From IMG/VR virus record IMGVR_UViG_3300045988_138358: a stretch of DNA of 64,000 bases. One strand, written 5' to 3'. The notes under the pieces were generated by a model that saw only the letters and a program-made list of their open reading frames with translations, did not search any database and had not been told where the DNA came from. Positions 3,407 through 36,547 of this stretch are shown piece after piece (the stretch's first letter is position 1; every line of letters starts with the position of its first letter). Source of the stretch: a virus (taxonomy: Duplodnaviria; Heunggongvirae; Uroviricota; Caudoviricetes). A program made the translations under genes and the position numbers.

Positions 3407-3683
3407 ACGTCGAGAACCAGCTAAAGCGCCTAAGGCTACTGATCCGGAACTTGAGCGAAGAATTGAAGAGTTCGCCAGCAAAGCGGATTTAATCCCGGAT
3501 GAAATTACAACGGGGAAGGTGCTTGATAAAGATGCGCCGCGCGACTTTAAATCCATACGCGTGAGCTTTAATGAATATGAGTACGGGGTGCTCGATGCGT
3601 TAAGCAAAAAGCTTAACCGCAGCAAATTGAACCTGATTCGACATGCCATCCTCATGCTTGCTGAGTCAGAGGATGCTAAATGA
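3399..3683 (+). CDS. ParG/ParB-like small centromere-binding protein (putative)
   Basis: 94 aa basic protein overlapping the end of the ParA-like gene, as in type Ib partition operons. Confidence 0.5.
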   Translation: MIKRREPAKAPKATDPELERRIEEFASKADLIPDEITTGKVLDKDAPRDFKSIRVSFNEYEYGVLDALSKKLNRSKLNLIRHAILMLAESEDAK

Positions 3684-3802
3684 TACCGATTTGATGCCTT
3701 ATTGGCGTCTATCGTGTACCAGTGCAATAATGTGTCAAAGTGGTGCCATAATGGTGTTAATATACAGCCATATTGATATCAAATTGACACTGTATCGGCA
3801 TC

Positions 3803-3830
3803 AAAAAGCCCCAGGCGGGGCTTTTTCTAT
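3803..3830. terminator. bidirectional hairpin terminator between parG-like and dam
   Basis: GCCCC-AGGC-GGGGC stem with A-run before and T-run after; sits where two converging genes meet. Confidence 0.55.
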
Positions 3831-4732
3831 TTGAGCGTTGCAATGATATCGTTAGCGACTATTCGCGTGGATGCTTTGCATGACACGGACCGTCTGGCTG
3901 GCATGTGGTACAGCTTAAAACCGTTTCTTTCGTACAATTCGCGAATTTTTGGCGCGCCACTGTTTGTTATTACTATCTTTGCACCGCGCTGGTGGGCCGC
4001 CACCAACAGTGATACAAGCCGTTTTTGTTCATCGAAAAGGAAGCTATTTCCTGAATAGCTGGTAAATCCCTCTGTATCTGGCAGCGGCTCATACGGCGGA
4101 TCACAAAAAATCACATCGTCTTCACCAGCCGCCTCGATGACACCAGCAAAGTCACCTGATACAAAGGAAGTGTTTTTGAGTACGTCATCAGCCAAAAATG
4201 CCTTCATCTCTGCATGTGGGAAGTAGGGCGCTTTGTATTTGCCATACCCCACGTTGAACTCGCCATTTTGGTTGTACCGCGTTACGCCATTAAAACAGTG
4301 ACGATTAAGGTACAAAAATGCGGCAGCATGATGTAGTTGGTCATACTTTCCTCTGTTAAATGCCTCACGCACTTCGAGGTAAGCGTCAGCGTTGTTGTAA
4401 TTTTTGAAAAAACTATATGACAGCGTGACGAGCGAATGTCCTTCTCGCTGCAATGTCTGATAGAAGTTAATCAGGTCACCGTTAATATCATTAAGCAGGT
4501 TGTGGCGAAATCCTGCATTCGTAAATACGGAACCGCCACCAACGAATGGTTCTATTAACCGCTTACCGTGTGGTAGATGCTCAAGCACTGTAGGCAATTC
4601 TGAGAATTTACCACCTACCCATTTGAATATCGGACGCTCATATTCATCCGGAGTCCGAATGGTGCGCATATAGCTAATTTCAGCCATCGTATCCTGTTTT
4701 TCTATGGCTATGCTTGCTATAGATTTACTCAT
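3827..4732 (-). CDS. dam: DNA adenine methyltransferase (Dam family)
   Basis: KWVGGK, NRHCFNG and DPPY motifs of Dam-type N6-adenine methyltransferases; start set at MSKS, 2 nt after the stop of the upstream gene (ORF track extends to 4828). Confidence 0.85.
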   Translation of the reverse strand: MSKSIASIAIEKQDTMAEISYMRTIRTPDEYERPIFKWVGGKFSELPTVLEHLPHGKRLIEPFVGGGSVFTNAGFRHNLLNDINGDLINFYQTLQREGHSLVTLSYSFFKNYNNADAYLEVREAFNRGKYDQLHHAAAFLYLNRHCFNGVTRYNQNGEFNVGYGKYKAPYFPHAEMKAFLADDVLKNTSFVSGDFAGVIEAAGEDDVIFCDPPYEPLPDTEGFTSYSGNSFLFDEQKRLVSLLVAAHQRGAKIVITNSGAPKIRELYERNGFKLYHMPARRSVSCKASTRIVANDIIATLK

Positions 4733-5477
4733 AGAGCACCCCCTTATTCGCTTCGAAAACTGCCTTTGCGAATCCATGTGGAGTAGCACTTCGAAAATTA
4801 GCCCTGTCAGGCCCTGGTGGCGCGGCATGGATTCTGTTATCTGGCTTGCCTAATGATTCGTCCATTAGGGCATCAGGCATGACAAAGCCCTGGCCGCTCC
4901 AGAGGCATGTTTTTTTTGTGTAGTTATCTTCCTGACAATATGCAGTGAAGAAGTAAGGGTGAAAGATGTGATCTGGCTTACGCCAGAATGTCGATATTTT
5001 GCTGACCGGATTTTCAATCATGTACGGACAACCGATCATCTTTGCAATGTCATAACACTGCCAGACAACCTGCATTGCTTTGAACTGGAAAACCGGATCT
5101 TTATTAGCCTTGTCCGAAAACCAGCGCGCGCCGGAAACAGCCAGGTCAGTACACGGTGGGAACCCGGCCAGAAACACGATGCGCTGCAAATTCTTACGGA
5201 GAAAAGCGTATACTTCATCGCTATCGATGATCGCACTAATACGCGTCAGAACGGCACCTGATTGCATCCGCTCGTCACTGGTCGATAAGTGCTGTGGATC
5301 GACGATAGCGGCATCGACACCGTATTCCAGCCAGGGGGCAACCATTGCCCCCGTAAAATCACAAAGACTCACAACAAGCTGTCGGTTATTATCGTTCTGC
5401 TTCACCGCCAATGGCCTCCACCAGCGCGTTAAACAGTGCAGATAATTCGCCCGTAAAGAGCACGAAATCAGCATCAA
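4725..5477 (-). CDS. C5-cytosine methyltransferase-like protein (short)
   Basis: FLAGFPPC (PC motif) and IENP (ENV-like) motifs; true start may be a GTG nearer the rdgC stop since the track start overlaps rdgC by about 90 nt. Confidence 0.55.
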
Positions 5478-6294
5478 ATCGTTGTGCTACATCCTCCCGG
5501 TCGATATCGTCGTTCTGGTCATAGAGATCATCACAGAATGTCAGGGCTTTGATACTCATATCATCGTTGACTCTGAACGACGCACGGTCCATCCAGTTAA
5601 TTGCAACGGTCGTAGCTACTTTCCCCGCCTCAATGTGAGACATAATCTCGTCGGACTGTAGATCAACTTTGTTGCAGCGAACGGCACCACCATTATCGAG
5701 CAGACCCTTTAATGTGGCGTCTTCACCTGCTGTAAATCCGGCAGGGAAGCCGCTTTTAAACCACTCGGTCATTGTAATTTCCAGCGGTTCGCGTGGTGTG
5801 AATGGAATGACAGGCAGGCTGCCGAGCGACTTTCGCAATAAAGCCAGCTGGTCCTCTGCCTTTTTGGCGCTGCTTGCCTCAACGAATACCAGATGGTTGC
5901 TGCGGTCGATCAGGATTTTGGCGAGTGATTTTCTCGTGAACGCGCGAGGCAAAAGTGAATGCAGGACTTCATCTTTAAGACTGTCTCTTTCCGTTTTCTT
6001 CAGCTTGCGGGCTTGCTCTTCTTCGAGTTTCAGGACTTTTTTCTGCAACTCTTCCTTGAGCACCTGCGAGGGGAGAATTTTTTCTTCTCGCTTATGCTGT
6101 ATTAGCAGAAAACCCTGGTATTCATGGGTGAGGTTGTCACCAAGAACAGGTGTCCAACCGACTTTAGCTGTGTCCTGAGAACCGCAAGGAGTAAACACGA
6201 ATTTGCTAAGAGCATCGGATACTTCTGCGGCACTCCAGTTAACTTCACGTGAAAGACGATAGATGAAGATGTTTTTGAAAGCGACTGATCTCAT
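5389..6294 (-). CDS. rdgC: recombination-associated protein RdgC
   Basis: Near full-length similarity to E. coli RdgC (YRLSRE..., [41 protein letters not shown] end). Confidence 0.85.
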
Positions 6295-6300
6295 GTTTCA

Positions 6301-6344
6301 CCAATTGTGTTAGAAAATTCTATTCAATTATCTAACACAATTGG
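6301..6344. promoter_or_regulatory. inverted pair of TGTTAGA operator-like half-sites upstream of rdgC
   Basis: CCAATTGTGTTAGA ... TCTAACACAATTGG, perfect 14-bp inverted repeat with 16-bp spacer, ending 7 bp from the rdgC start. Confidence 0.55.
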
Positions 6345-6353
6345 ATGTGTTTT

Positions 6354-7007
6354 CTATCCCTTCTTGAAATCAAAGTTGCTTGCGATGGCCTGGAAGGTGC
6401 CTCCAGCCTTGAAATCAATATTTTCGTCGGCTGTCACAGTAATGTTTTTGCCATTAACGCTGATGTTATCGGCTGATTTGACGTTAACACTCCCTCCCGC
6501 ATTCACTACTACATCAGCCGGACCAATGATGTATATCTGCCCTGATTCATTCATTCCAATCCTTGAGCCTGCTGCCGTATTCGCTATTTCATATCCACCG
6601 CCAGCCGTTCGCACTTCGAGCACATTGTTGCGGTGAATCACGAAATCTTTTGTCGCCGAAAATTGCGGGCGGGGAGGCGCTCCGTCTACTTCTGGTGGCG
6701 TCCAGCCGCTACCATTGCCTGACGCCTCCGGCGCGACGTTTGGTACTCCTCCAGGCGCATCCTGAGCTGCGCCAACTATCATTGGGCGTCTGGTATCAAT
6801 TCGACCATTAACATCCAGATAAGGAAACTCTACCCATACCAGGTCGCCTTTTACTGTAGGTACAAACGCGTTACCTATGGGTAACAGGTATTCTGCCCAG
6901 GGTAGATCGTCATCAGGAACGCCATTCCAGTCTGGTAAAACACGGACCTGAGCACGCATAAGCCCTGCCGGGTGCACAGTTCCAACAATTTGCGCTCTAC
7001 GCTTCAT
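6354..7007 (-). CDS. baseplate spike / gpV-like protein (putative)
   Basis: N-terminal region resembles the gpV OB-fold pattern (IVGTV...RVLP...GDLVWVEF); C-terminal short repeats (NVKSADNISVNGKNITV) typical of spike beta-structure. Confidence 0.45.
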   Translation of the reverse strand: MKRRAQIVGTVHPAGLMRAQVRVLPDWNGVPDDDLPWAEYLLPIGNAFVPTVKGDLVWVEFPYLDVNGRIDTRRPMIVGAAQDAPGGVPNVAPEASGNGSGWTPPEVDGAPPRPQFSATKDFVIHRNNVLEVRTAGGGYEIANTAAGSRIGMNESGQIYIIGPADVVVNAGGSVNVKSADNISVNGKNITVTADENIDFKAGGTFQAIASNFDFKKG

Positions 7008-15260: not shown

Positions 15261-16146
15261 ACACCTTTAACCACGGAGATGCCGTTCCCTGCACGATAGC
15301 GGCGGGGAACGGAATTCTCCATCAGGTCACGAATTACTCCCGCCTCATGTAGTTCCACTGTTTCCCAGTATCTGTTTGTCACCAATTACGCCCCTTTCCG
15401 CCAGGGGAAGGTATGAACGAGCTTCTGCTTCGGTTGCAGCCATGACGCAGATATACAGGTGTTTTTGGCAGGAATAGAAACGCCAGATAAATTCAGAATG
15501 AGTTGGGGTGGGGATAGTAGCGATATTGGCAGCCTCCTTTGACTAAGTTAAGGAGCTACCGCGTGAGGTTCCAATCCCGGCACCCGTTTTTCTAAGGTGC
15601 CGTAGAAATATACCCCACGATAAGGCCAGGGCGCAAAAGTCAGTATTTTATGCTTTGGCGGATTTCTTCCGGGCTTGCTTGCAGGCGTAGGCCATTGCTT
15701 TAGCTTTCACTTCATCCAGCTTCCCGGTGATCACTTCTTTTCCGAGAGTGACAAACCAGTCATAGCAACCGCCAGTGATGTTCTGGATTTGAAAGTTGAG
15801 GTAGCGAACGGTCATTTTGACACCCCCAGCGCGAGTAAAGAATGCAGATTATCGCGTGAGTGGCGGACAACGAGTGATGGGAAAAGACAGTAGCTGTTCA
15901 TAGTGTAGTGACTCCTTGCTTTCGGAGCCGCCTTCGACTGTTCCACGGTCTGGTGGCGGCGCAATAAAGGCTGGAACACCGTGAGTCAACGGGGGCTTTT
16001 CAGCCACCTATATTGCACCGCCATAGGTATAGCGGCGGCAATAATACGAAAAACTAAACAGTTTGTCTCAAAAAGTTGACCGGTGTGCCAATCGGTAGTG
16101 AATGTACATCGGAGAAATTTACAATTCAACTTAAAATGTTAGAAAA

Positions 16147-16770: not shown

Positions 16771-16806
16771 AATTGTTAGATATTCAAAATTGATTTTCTA
16801 ACACAA
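16771..16806. promoter_or_regulatory. inverted pair of TGTTAGA operator-like half-sites, divergent promoter region
   Basis: AATTGTTAGA ... TTTTCTAACAC with 16-17 bp spacer between the Ref-like gene and the plus-strand accessory operon. Confidence 0.55.
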
Positions 16807-16997
16807 AATATTAATATCATTCCTGATAACTGTTTGGAGGACATGATGCTTATAGCTTTAAGTGCGATCCACCAGCCATCTGTGAATGAAATTGGCCTGT
16901 TCTATGTGTTGTTTTTCGGGGCGTTGGCGCTACTTGAGCTTGGTATTGAGCTTTTCGCAGTGCTTATGTTTTGCGTCACGATTTTGGGGAAATTTTG

Positions 16998-20837: not shown

Positions 20838-20867
20838 GCCGGGTTACATCGTTTACGCGCTCAAAAG

Positions 20868-20900
20868 TGTGTTAGATTGTTGATTTTAATTTTCTAACAT
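20868..20900. promoter_or_regulatory. inverted pair of TGTTAGA operator-like half-sites
   Basis: GTGTGTTAGA ... TTTTCTAACAT followed by TATTAT, upstream of the 20942 gene. Confidence 0.55.
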
Positions 20901-20941
20901 ATTATTTTACCGCTCGGAACAAAACAGAGTCGGTATGCATT

Positions 20942-32364: not shown

Positions 32365-32565
32365 GAAATTTAGGAATTTTTTTCCTTTCCGCGCAGATGG
32401 GCAATGCATTGCTGGTGTGGGCTTTAAGTTATGCCTGGCAGTTTTTAAGCAGAATTTTCTAAATTGGATGATAAAAAAATGCATCTTGATCCTTTACTCA
32501 CCCTGTTATTCGGCATAGATTTGTCATAGTAATTTTATGTTAGAAAACTAAATCGAGTAGGAATA

Positions 32566-33603
32566 ATGAGTAAGAAGTCGATCGAGAAAGAGTACAAACG
32601 GTTCCTGCAAACCGCTGAACGGTGGAAAGAGCTGGTGGTCGCAAACTCTGTTTTCCATGATACCAGTTATTCCGGCGAGGAATTCCGCCATGTTGCACTA
32701 ACACATGATCAGAATGTGCTAGAAGAAGCTGAAAAGTGCCTCACAGAATGGAAAGCCTTTGTTGACTTGTGCCGTAACGCTGACGGCAAAGCGTCTAACA
32801 TTGTTGAGTCTGTATATTCTCCGATCCCATTCATTATCGAGGACACAAATCAAAGCACGCATATTGTTGTGCAAAGCGCGACCACCACCCGCTCATTTAC
32901 GCGCGAAAATCTGCTCAAAAAATATGATGCAATTATAAAGAAAAGCCTGAAAAACAAGATATTTTCGCAGATTGTTGGTGCACTTGAAGAAGAGCGCCGT
33001 TTTTTCGCATCAGAACCTGAAGGGGAAGTTTACCGGGCGCGCAAAGATGGATACACAGATGTAGTGCTTACAACAAACATTGAAGGCAGCAATGCTCTGT
33101 CACGATTCAGGGTAGGCGCACACGGAGCCTTAGTGTTCGCAAAACTTCCGAACACCACAGTGCCCGTTGTTAATAATGTCGGCGAACGTCGCAGCATTAC
33201 TATTTATTCTGGGGTTGAGTCGATACCTTGCGGCCTGCTTGGTGACTTTAGTCTCTATCGCGTTCGCGATCTGGAGAAACACCAACCAAGCTATGTTGCG
33301 AAGTCATACATCTTGCGAAACATCGACATCCGCAATGAGAGCTTAAAGAACAAATCAGCCAAAATGCTTGAGGAAGCCGATCCGGCTATTCGCCATATCA
33401 TTGAGCGTAAAATACAGACAGCACGCGAAGCGATGGCGAGACTGAATAAAATGGATCTGGAGTTGTTAGACGTAATGATGACATCCGGAGATGACCTGAC
33501 AGGCATAAAACTGACAGACGCGCGGAAAAGATACGGTAAAACCATAGAAGAACGTTACGGGTTCACTTTCTCCCAAACACAGCACGCCGCTAAACTCTGG
33601 TAA
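32566..33603 (+). CDS. hypothetical protein, candidate regulator
   Basis: 345 aa; an operator-like motif (TATGTTAGAAAACTAAAT) sits about 15 bp upstream of its ribosome-binding site. Confidence 0.45.
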   Translation: MSKKSIEKEYKRFLQTAERWKELVVANSVFHDTSYSGEEFRHVALTHDQNVLEEAEKCLTEWKAFVDLCRNADGKASNIVESVYSPIPFIIEDTNQSTHIVVQSATTTRSFTRENLLKKYDAIIKKSLKNKIFSQIVGALEEERRFFASEPEGEVYRARKDGYTDVVLTTNIEGSNALSRFRVGAHGALVFAKLPNTTVPVVNNVGERRSITIYSGVESIPCGLLGDFSLYRVRDLEKHQPSYVAKSYILRNIDIRNESLKNKSAKMLEEADPAIRHIIERKIQTAREAMARLNKMDLELLDVMMTSGDDLTGIKLTDARKRYGKTIEERYGFTFSQTQHAAKLW

Positions 33604-35183: not shown

Positions 35184-36547
35184 TAGTCATCCTCCGGCGG
35201 TTCTATCGCAATATCATCATCTCCGGCGTCATACCCTGCATCTGATGCATCATAATCACCGTAAATTTCAGCCGTTGCCGAAGGGTCAATGTCCAACTCT
35301 TCATCGTTGGCCTCGAATTCCCCAGCCTTACGCTCGCCATTGTGGTCGTAATCTCCGCACCCCAGATCTTCAACAATGGTTGCCACATCCGCCCGGCGCT
35401 CTGCCAGCCATTGCGGATGGTTAGCCTGAAGCGATGCAAACTCCTTCGCTTCTTTGTCCAGCTGTTCATCATCAACATCATTGATGTCAGAAACTGGAGG
35501 TTCGAGAAGAGTGATAGCTTTCGCCGCGCGCGCCGCGAGGATAGCCGGGACACTGACACCCTGACGCTCGATGTATTCAGCAACACCGATATCGTCCAGC
35601 TCCTCGCGCTCACGCATACGTATAGCGGCGGCGATAACTCTGGCTGCGCGTGCGTCAGCGCCAATGCGATATTCAATCTCTTTGCCACGCTGTTCGGCCT
35701 GTAGGCGTGCTAATTCGAGTTTTTCTCTGGCCTCGGCCTCTCTGAATGCTTGCTGGCGAGCACCCTGACGAAGTTTTTCATCACCCTGTCGCAGCTTTTG
35801 TTCGGACTGATATATCGCTGCCAACCTACTGATAAAATCGTTCATGTAGTAGGCCGCGTCACTGATTAGACCGAGAAGTCGCTGCCCAGGGTGCATTCCT
35901 TCTGGCTGTTCATCACCCAGGGCGTCTATCTCCGCCTGTAGGCGTTCGGCCTCCTGATCAACAATGCTTTGGTACTGAAGTGCGCGTTCTTGCGCCATTT
36001 GAATTGCTAACCGCAGGTGCTCTTCTGCGCCGTTCTTCATCATGTCGCGAGCCACACTCGTAGTGGGCAACGTGGCACGCTGCACAGCACCGCCAGGGAT
36101 CATTGCTGAAGATCCCTCGATTTTTGAGGCGCATTTATCTTCGGTGGGGATCATTTTCGCCATTTTTTCGCGCAATGATCTCCTGACAGATTCTTTTATC
36201 TCATTGTTATTATTTGCATTATTTTCATGATCCGAAGTTTTCTTTCTCGGCATACTTCGGAAAGAACCTGTGCCCTGCGAATTGTCAATTTCTGTAAATT
36301 TTGTTGTTTCTGTACCCTCTTCTGGTCTTTTTTTTGCTCTTCCTGCCCGTTTTTTTTGAGGTGATTTGGTGCTTTTTTTTGTAGTCTTCACCTGCGACCG
36401 CACCTCATTTTTTTTCATATTGAGATGCTTTCTGGCGGTATTGAAGCTAAGGTCGTGTTGCTCGCAGTATTCCTTTACGGTGATCCCTTTTTCTTCACGC
36501 AACGCTATAAATTTGGCGCGGTGCTCTTCCCAATTAACCAGACTCAT
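35183..36547 (-). CDS. pacA: terminase small-subunit / pac-recognition protein (PacA-like)
   Basis: N-terminal HTH (EYCEQHDLSFNTARKHL), long basic and acidic coiled regions; stop overlaps pacB start. Confidence 0.65.
   Translation of the reverse strand: MSLVNWEEHRAKFIALREEKGITVKEYCEQHDLSFNTARKHLNMKKNEVRSQVKTTKKSTKSPQKKRAGRAKKRPEEGTETTKFTEIDNSQGTGSFRSMPRKKTSDHENNANNNNEIKESVRRSLREKMAKMIPTEDKCASKIEGSSAMIPGGAVQRATLPTTSVARDMMKNGAEEHLRLAIQMAQERALQYQSIVDQEAERLQAEIDALGDEQPEGMHPGQRLLGLISDAAYYMNDFISRLAAIYQSEQKLRQGDEKLRQGARQQAFREAEAREKLELARLQAEQRGKEIEYRIGADARAARVIAAAIRMREREELDDIGVAEYIERQGVSVPAILAARAAKAITLLEPPVSDINDVDDEQLDKEAKEFASLQANHPQWLAERRADVATIVEDLGCGDYDHNGERKAGEFEANDEELDIDPSATAEIYGDYDASDAGYDAGDDDIAIEPPEDD
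36095..36235. other. candidate pac site: GATC-hexamer cluster inside pacA
   Basis: Five GATC within about 135 bp (near 36098, 36111, 36149, 36177, 36229), each in a TGATC-like hexamer; P1 pac is a cluster of TGATCA hexamers in the 5' part of pacA. Confidence 0.4.

Follow-up and report, generated by a model that had tools for sequence, protein, structure and literature searches.

A D6-type rdgC, cytosine-methyltransferase-like and dam operon behind a paired operator-like repeat in a plasmid prophage

We have identified in a D6-like plasmid prophage a three-gene operon, encoding RdgC, a short C5-cytosine-methyltransferase-like protein and a Dam-family adenine methyltransferase, that is probably the D6-lineage version of the C1-repressed uhr-hrdC-dmt early operon of phage P1. 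The window, meaning the whole 64,000-nucleotide stretch analysed (IMG/VR record IMGVR_UViG_3300045988_138358), is assigned to this type of element by sequence, with 100% identity to E. coli plasmid NZ_AP027678.1 and 94% DNA identity to phage D6. Gene identities and overlaps, the upstream repeat and the spread of its motif, conservation, purifying selection and cassette exchange are all direct observations. The P1 hrdC-dmt operon was described two decades ago and the present operon is already annotated in D6; it is ordinary apart from the large, biochemically uncharacterised family to which its small C5-like gene belongs. With considerable reserve, we suggest that this family (>2,500 clusters at 50% identity, 1,580 phage genomes, no Pfam model) consists of minimal C5-methyltransferase-like enzymes that are interchangeable at one locus with the C5 domain of Dmt, and that covariation in the outer arms of the repeat may point to an RNA hairpin.

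The original prediction of an rdgC, C5-like and Dam operon was borne out, with all three genes on the minus strand: rdgC at 6294-5389, an open reading frame (ORF) of 226 aa at 5405-4725 and the Dam gene at 4732-3827. The rdgC stop and the start of the middle ORF overlap by 17 nt, the middle-ORF stop and the dam ATG by 8 nt (ATGAGTAA), and both junctions are kept in relatives. The operon is flanked by a 19-nt inverted repeat at 6301-6344 and, directly 3' of the dam stop codon, by a terminator-like hairpin at 3803-3826 (AAAAAGCCCC-AGGC-GGGGCTTTTT, either strand), which was read from the sequence and was not listed by the consensus terminator and promoter scan; its sequence suggests a role as terminator.

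RdgC and Dam are secure members of their families, as had been predicted, and their NCBIfam scores exceed the cutoffs. The 301-aa RdgC product matches PF04381 over its full length (5e-103, profile positions 3-298 of 298) and NF001462 at 381 bits (cutoff 330). Its D6 counterpart, D6_65, is annotated as 'similar to P1 hrdC', and rdgC has a dN/dS of 0.05-0.13. The 301-aa Dam product, starting at the ATG at 4732, matches the MethyltransfD12 family PF02086 (1e-55, 189 bits, cutoff 22) and TIGR00571 (248 bits, cutoff 115), and contains EPFVGGGS and CDPPYEP, which carry the FVGGG and DPPY motifs. It is 67% identical to residues 531-806 of P1-type Dmt, the C-terminal Dam half, and this identity points to GATC specificity. 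Against the E. coli Dam equivalog model it scores 237, below the cutoff of 441. Separately, the pacA homologue of the window contains a cluster of GATC sites; in P1, Dam methylation of GATC is required for pac cutting.

An operator pair, predicted to be perfect, was expected ahead of the operon, and an operator-like pair is indeed present there, with one mismatch. The arms (6301-6319 and 6326-6344) are 19 nt each, separated by a 6-nt gap, and their outer 14 bp are perfect (CCAATTGTGTTAGA / TCTAACACAATTGG). The upstream arm (6326-6344; minus-strand sequence CCAATTGTGTTAGATAATT) includes the -10-like hexamer GATAAT. The downstream arm (6301-6319), an inverted copy of the motif in plus-strand orientation, covers the likely transcript start and the 5'UTR as far as GGTGA, the ribosome-binding site of rdgC. 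A consensus scan placed a sigma-70-like promoter on the minus strand at 6327-6356, with the -35 element TAGAAA (6356-6351), an 18-nt spacer and GATAAT (6332-6327) as the -10 element, and we infer that this element functions as a promoter.

The core pattern of the arms, TRTTAGAWAWYT, is found at 12 sites across the window where 0.15 would be expected, a count reached by 0 of 100 shuffles, the pattern having been derived from the same data on which it was counted. The inverted repeat is kept in 27 related IMG/VR loci. GATAAT and both motif cores are invariant in 15 distinct relatives, and TAGMAA (17-18 nt upstream) and GATAAT are retained in all relatives. In D6, copies of the motif stand immediately ahead of c1, lpa, pmgS, the icd/antirepressor operon, rdgC, pdcB and the orf117 operon. 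This dispersal, and the position of the motif before the c1 homologue and other D6 genes, support reading the repeat as an operator pair, as does the annotation of a C1 operator before uhr-hrdC-dmt in P1; binding of a repressor to it is proposed purely by analogy. The presumed binder is the c1-like gene at 32566-33603 on the plus strand (D6_1, 'prophage repressor, similar to P1 C1'), which has a motif copy at 32538-32549, 17 nt upstream of its ATG, and whose product is 20% identical to P1 C1 over 239 aa (pairwise E 6e-8).

The outer arms of the repeat covary, which a plain two-operator model leaves unexplained. Outer-arm positions, which lie outside the dispersed motif, vary on both sides yet remain complementary (6 pairs, 20 cells), the variants being CCAATTG/CAATTGG, CCATTTG/CAAATGG, GCAAAACTG/CAGTTTTGC and CAATG/CATTG. 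Pairing holds in 91.8% of cells against 84.1% in shuffles (reached by 0 of 500) and 35-47% in slid controls, where the shuffle control is not to be taken as a probability, since the sequences are related. It is possible, though on balance we doubt it, that the repeat acts mainly as a nucleic-acid hairpin, instead of or besides an operator pair. An mRNA stem-loop at the junction of gene 5 and rdgC might be processed or might stabilise late transcripts, or it might mask the rdgC ribosome-binding site in read-through transcripts, while transcripts that begin within the repeat, and so have no left arm, would be translated. The predicted RNA fold of the repeat (-22.7 kcal/mol, z = -6.1) is consistent with such a structure, as is a second bivalent motif site in the window (20865-20904), which has the same 6-nt geometry but flanks that are not complementary. 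Against a hairpin, the invariant part of the repeat is exactly the dispersed motif plus GATAAT, and an Rfam search of 3500-6600 gave no match. Additionally, templated quasipalindrome mutation can keep inverted-repeat arms symmetric, and could have preserved the symmetry here independently of any function. A role as intrinsic terminator was rejected, as no U-tract follows the stem 3'. We keep the operator pair as the preferred reading.

The program-called middle ORF begins at a TTG at 5477, and the likely start is the GTG at 5405, which has GGAGG upstream at 9-nt spacing; from there to 4725 it encodes 226 aa, equal to D6_64. The protein is a full-length member of phrog_757 (4e-78 over residues 2-224), a family labelled 'DNA methyltransferase' in PHROG that includes ECO1230-10 Orf43 and homologues from Arthrobacter, Klebsiella and Vibrio phages. 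Homologues are present in 1,580 phage records, and the family comprises >7,900 clusters at 90% identity and 2,588 representatives at 50% identity, nearly all of them standalone proteins of ~210-260 aa and many from unrelated phages. In most phages the gene occurs on its own among replication and recombination (nin-type) genes. A general association of the family with N6-adenine methylases was considered and rejected: at 57 loci outside the D6 group, just 5 of the 104 flanking ORFs are DNA methyltransferases. Tight coupling to Dam characterises the D6 lineage and a small number of others.

The short protein had no match in Pfam, NCBIfam or PDB sequences (the last searched with the single sequence and two profiles), PF00145 was absent at E<=10 in 34 family members, and BLASTP found no similarity to Dmt. 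A 75-member family profile gave hhalign E-values of 0.41 against P1 Dmt alone and 0.25 against a Dmt C5 profile, neither of them significant, the latter profile being narrow (9 sequences, as the homologue search gave only close P1-like relatives). These non-significant alignments are collinear over motifs I, IV and VI. The original prediction set the fused Dmt of P1 against separate genes here. Two separate genes are indeed present, but the short ORF is not a detached Dmt C5 domain, because it shows no BLASTP similarity, no PF00145 and no significant hhalign match, and belongs instead to phrog_757.

Several features nevertheless argue for a C5-methyltransferase-like enzyme. The Pro-Cys of C5 motif IV and the Glu-Asn-Val of motif VI have counterparts in the family as PPC85 and E131-N-P-V, and D36, C85 (PPC), E131 and P133 (ENPV) are invariant across 75 diverse members. 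The Cys-to-Glu spacing is 46 residues in the window's protein, 38 in M.HhaI and 49 in P1 Dmt, a C5-like distance. Conserved acidic residues D36 and D61 fall at the motif II and III positions and make AdoMet binding by the family plausible. In one member (P0227) an intein is inserted at GFPP|C. A homologue of this intein (31% identity, E 3e-39) sits at GGTP|C, the motif IV cysteine of a canonical P1-type Dmt, and that cysteine aligns with motif IV of M.HhaI (GFPCQAFS). Another member (P0121) is a natural fusion in which the short domain is followed by a D12 Dam domain, in the order of the window. The operator-like repeat and rdgC occur together in 27 D6-like loci; 22 of these have the short gene and dam, and the other 5 (L013, L016, L021, L026 and L028) carry a P1-type C5-Dam fusion in that slot. 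D6-like phage-plasmids thus exchange two unrelated-looking cytosine-methylase modules at one slot before the same Dam gene.

It is unlikely, in our judgement, that the 226-aa protein is instead a Rossmann-fold enzyme that acts on a different substrate or by a different chemistry (RNA, another base or another C5-pyrimidine modification), or a non-catalytic partner that modulates Dam. The missing PF00145, NCBIfam and PDB sequence matches and the non-significant hhalign results would fit such a protein, as would its motifs. The FxGxG AdoMet loop of motif I is not present in the family, where the consensus is LCDxTGxM, and the variable target-recognition domain between motifs VIII and IX is absent, ~90 well-conserved residues following motif VI with no variable insert. 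Since its motif I is non-canonical and the protein is too small to hold a normal target-recognition domain, its activity or specificity could be unlike those of known enzymes. Structure comparison gives both sides something: in Foldseek searches with an AF2 model (pLDDT 85.5), DNMT3B (E 5e-3, TM 0.39) and MET1 were among the best named matches and viral C5 methyltransferases matched at E 1e-5 to 8e-3 (TM 0.41-0.51), but other Rossmann enzymes scored alike, the top PDB folds also included FtsJ-like and ribosome-biogenesis methyltransferases and E1-like Rossmann proteins (TM 0.3-0.4), and TM-scores to canonical C5 enzymes were low throughout (0.39-0.51). The invariant Cys and Glu, the acidic positions, the homologous intein at the same catalytic cysteine, the exchange in situ with a canonical C5 domain and the viral C5 fold matches weigh against a different chemistry, and we continue to favour a minimal C5-like enzyme.

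That the three genes lack a promoter of their own and simply close a same-strand late operon of tail and baseplate genes (7-24-6-5) seems improbable to us. The gene 5 stop lies 59 nt from the rdgC start, and no terminator separates the tail genes from the operon. Against a purely late mode stand the conserved -35/-10 pair embedded in the conserved operator-like pair, and the example of P1, where a C1-controlled promoter in other genomic surroundings drives the homologous genes. Both modes could operate side by side: as the operon lies 3' of same-strand tail genes with no intervening terminator, late read-through may also express it.

The middle ORF is under purifying selection, with a dN/dS of about 0.1 (0.07-0.12, like its neighbours), and is intact in each of the 22 D6-like loci where it occurs, with its own Shine-Dalgarno sequence and its start codon kept as well. 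The original prediction had named a frameshifted remnant of a single fused gene as one finding that would overturn it, and we reject this as scarcely credible: the 8-nt overlap with dam in a different frame could be fused or split by a 1-nt indel, and fused forms exist in P1 Dmt and P0121, but the ORF is dissimilar to the Dmt C5 domain, has thousands of same-length standalone homologues in unrelated phages and is an intact, selected gene.

We propose that in the plasmid-prophage state the C1-like repressor would bind the two inverted operator copies. The upstream copy contains the -10 hexamer and the downstream copy covers the transcript start, so that a bound repressor should block transcription. 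On infection or induction the sigma-70 promoter would fire and yield a single mRNA ending at the post-dam hairpin, on which the overlapping stop and start codons would couple translation of RdgC, the 226-aa protein and Dam. Dam would then methylate GATC on rapidly replicating phage DNA, and the 226-aa protein, as a minimal C5-cytosine-methyltransferase-like enzyme filling the exact slot of the canonical Dmt C5 domain of P1 and some D6-like relatives, would most likely add a second, protective cytosine methylation. RdgC presumably serves as a DNA-binding modulator of RecA-dependent reactions.

If the short family is active, it may supply a cytosine methylase of unusually short or relaxed specificity, or a different C5 modification, and its target would matter for interpreting phage methylomes and restriction escape. 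Searches of the literature turned up no study testing whether Dmt or the short family methylates cytosine, and the module swap in D6-like phage-plasmids is a natural pointer to the function of the latter. If the outer arms mark an RNA hairpin, expression of rdgC and the methylases could differ between late read-through and repressor-controlled transcripts.

The closest known system is phage D6, whose genome (GenBank MF356679) was reportedly described by Gilcrease and Casjens in 2018. Its orf65 (RdgC, similar to hrdC), orf64 (putative DNA-cytosine methylase) and orf63 (adenine methylase, similar to the C-terminal half of P1 dmt) share gene content, order, overlaps and the upstream repeat with the window, and the short ORF and Dam are 99% and 95% identical, respectively, at the protein level. 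The two differ in that D6 has a glutaminyl-tRNA synthetase gene adjoining dam, which the window does not have, and in one compensated base-pair difference in the outer arms of the repeat.

P1 shares with the window an RdgC homologue followed by a C5 or C5-like module and a Dam module in the same order, with a C1-type operator, putative in the window, at the promoter ahead of them. An opposite order had been predicted, wrongly: P1-type Dmt has its C5 domain (PF00145) at the N terminus, where residues 51-131 of P1 Dmt align to motifs IV-VI of M.HhaI, and its Dam domain at the C terminus (residues 546-778). The comparison with P1 is thus corrected to one of equal module order with a non-orthologous C5 module. 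In P1 a monovalent C1 operator, Odmt (=Op68), and the promoter Pdmt are annotated before uhr-hrdC-dmt, and dmt itself is annotated as bifunctional, for GATC N6-adenine and 'perhaps' C5-cytosine methylation. That operator is single and of different sequence (ATTGCTCTAATAAATAT), whereas the window has two inverted operator-like copies. P1 also has the extra first gene uhr, which is missing from the window and had no match in any D6-like locus, and the genomic neighbourhood of the operon differs. The C5 module of P1 is canonical and forms a single 754-aa protein with Dam, whereas the C5-like module of the window is encoded by a separate, non-orthologous gene for a 226-aa protein.

Compared with canonical C5 methyltransferases more widely (M.HhaI, Dcm and DNMT; PF00145), the short protein probably shares the Rossmann methyltransferase fold, with a Pro-Cys loop after strand 4 and Glu-Asn after strand 5 at compatible spacing, and its family has the same intein insertion point. 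It differs from them in showing no sequence-profile similarity, in its LCDxTGxM motif I, in its length of only 226 aa and in having no standard target-recognition domain.

The three genes behind the paired inverted repeat lie on the minus strand and are tightly packed. The first, rdgC (6294..5389; 301 aa), matches Pfam RdgC end to end (5e-103) and scores above the NCBIfam RdgC cutoff, and the last, dam (ATG 4732..3827; 301 aa), encodes a D12-class N6-adenine methylase (Pfam, 1e-55) with a TIGR00571 score of 248 bits against a cutoff of 115. Between them is a C5-cytosine-methyltransferase-like gene of 226 aa, the short ORF; a mechanical ORF listing starts it at TTG 5477, and the likely start is GTG 5405 (5405..4725), which has GGAGG 9 nt upstream and is also the start in the D6 annotation. 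The rdgC stop and short ORF start overlap by 17 nt, the short ORF stop and dam start overlap in ATGAGTAA, and both junctions are conserved among relatives. Directly 3' of the dam stop the sequence reads as a hairpin, AAAAAGCCCC-AGGC-GGGGCTTTTT (3803-3826). Because the ORFs, overlaps, hairpin and inverted repeat were all found in the sequence, the original prediction of a three-gene operon behind the repeat holds in its coordinates and description.

This operon is already known from D6, as the counterpart of the Odmt-controlled hrdC-dmt operon of P1. The region matches E. coli plasmid NZ_AP027678.1 at 100% identity, is contained in 119 plasmid records, and shares 94% identity with D6, a phage that is a P1-like plasmid prophage. 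The D6 annotation describes orf65 as RdgC family and similar to P1 hrdC, orf64 as a putative DNA-cytosine methylase, and orf63 as an adenine methylase that resembles P1 dmt in its C-terminal half only; thus, the gene set had been described previously. Additionally, the spot beside dam (3682-3818) looks like a variable cargo site: the D6 glutaminyl-tRNA synthetase gene, located between the parA-like genes and dam, is absent from it, and near position 3838, just left of dam, many related plasmids part from the window.

We found that two non-orthologous cytosine-methylase modules swap at one slot across D6-like loci. The repeat and rdgC are kept in 27/27 loci, and the short gene and dam in 22 of them. 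A fused P1-type C5-Dam gene with a PF00145-type N-terminus replaces these two genes in the other five (L013, L016, L021, L026 and L028; locus positions ~4405-6700, window slot 3827-5405), and therefore the modules alternate. Between the window (4725-5405) and the D6-type relative L014 (4390-5070), dS is 0.007 for the short gene versus about 0.24-0.25 for the flanking rdgC and dam, which suggests that the middle gene was exchanged by recent recombination.

The short ORF belongs to PHROG 757, 'DNA methyltransferase', which it matches over the full length (4e-78). Its family is large, with >7,900 clusters at 90% identity and 2,588 representatives at 50% identity, and 1,580 phage records contain a homologue; almost all of these proteins stand alone and are 210-260 aa long. 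Invariant residues, the AF2 model, an intein, the locus exchange and a natural fusion together point to a C5-like catalytic core. D36, C85 (PPC) and E131 (ENPV) are invariant in 75 diverse members, and the Cys-to-Glu spacing matches that of C5 enzymes. A confident AF2 model (pLDDT 85.5) resembles DNMT3B and MET1 weakly and gives fold matches to several viral C5 methylases (E 1e-5 to 8e-3). The short protein has an atypical motif I and lacks a normal target-recognition domain. No PF00145 match at E<=10 was obtained in 34 family members, NCBIfam gave none for the short ORF, and two profiles found none for the family in the PDB. Alignment of the family to Dmt C5 domains with hhalign was not significant, with motifs I, IV and VI nonetheless collinear. 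A C5 domain freed from Dmt is ruled out, as the short ORF has no similarity to that domain. The original prediction had also raised a frameshifted remnant of a fused gene, which we reject because the short gene is under purifying selection (dN/dS 0.07-0.12, similar to rdgC and dam).

The family member P0227 carries a Hint+LAGLIDADG intein directly before the invariant Cys, at GFPP|C, and the P1-type Dmt variants P0369 and P0389 have a homologous one (31% identity, E 3e-39) at the catalytic cysteine, GGTP|C. In another homologue, P0121 (563 aa), the short domain (residues 2-253) is naturally fused to a D12 Dam domain (303-546), in the same order; this fusion is independent of that in P1 Dmt, because the linkers differ. 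The family is not generally paired with adenine methylases: at 57 other phage loci, DNA methyltransferases accounted for only 5 of the 104 flanking ORFs. The family usually lies beside genes for replication and recombination, for example NinB, NinG, RusA, SSB and DnaB.

The repeat upstream of rdgC consists of 19-nt arms (6301-6319 and 6326-6344) with one mismatch and a 6-nt spacer. Both arms contain TRTTAGAWAWYT, present in 12 copies in the window versus 0.15 expected, a very large excess that no shuffle reaches, even though the pattern was derived from the same data. Further 12-nt sites are at 16137, 20888, 31137, 32538, 37015, 40730, 40886, 42136, 53085 and 54287, with looser sites at, for example, 16792-16808 and 20865-20881; the pair at 20865-20904 has the tail-to-tail geometry and 6-nt gap of the rdgC pair, without complementary flanks. 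In D6 a copy of the motif closely precedes c1, lpa, pmgS, the icd/antirepressor genes, rdgC, pdcB and the orf117 operon. The dispersed copies are probably the regulon of a C1-like repressor. One copy lies 17 nt upstream of the ATG of a c1-like gene (32566-33603), whose product is distantly homologous to P1 C1 (20% identity, pairwise E 6e-8). A -10-like GATAAT lies within the upstream arm, and 18 nt farther upstream is TAGAAA; GATAAT and both motif cores are invariant among 15 distinct relatives. The P1 record annotates the C1 operator Odmt (formerly Op68) and promoter Pdmt before uhr-hrdC-dmt. By analogy, the rdgC-methylase operon is most likely repressed in the prophage and would be expressed early upon induction.

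The outer arm positions (6301-6307/6338-6344) fall outside the dispersed motif, and vary on both sides while staying complementary across lineages in an alignment of the repeat. Such changes involve 6 pairs and 20 cells, and the share of cells that pair is 91.8%, versus 84.1% in shuffles and 35-47% in slid controls. The predicted RNA fold is -22.7 kcal/mol (z = -6.1); there is no U-tract 3' of the stem, and Rfam gave no match across 3500-6600. The stem may be an mRNA hairpin located between tail gene 5 and rdgC, in which case transcripts from the internal promoter would be without it. It is also possible that the symmetry is a functionless product of templated quasipalindrome mutation.

Across the window, GATC sites are densest at 36098-36229, with 5 in about 130 bp; taken alone, this cluster has only weak significance. 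It falls within the 5' portion of the pacA homologue, and P1 has its Dam-dependent pac site at that place in pacA.

The interpretation in the original prediction is partly right, and its reversed module order relative to P1 Dmt is wrong. In P1-type Dmt the C5 domain (PF00145) is N-terminal, with motifs IV-VI of M.HhaI aligning to P1 Dmt residues 51-131, and the Dam domain occupies residues 546-778; the window Dam shares 67% identity with residues 531-806. The order is therefore C5-like then Dam in both phages. P1 fuses a canonical C5 domain and Dam in one protein, whereas here a C5-like protein and Dam are encoded by two overlapping genes in the same order.
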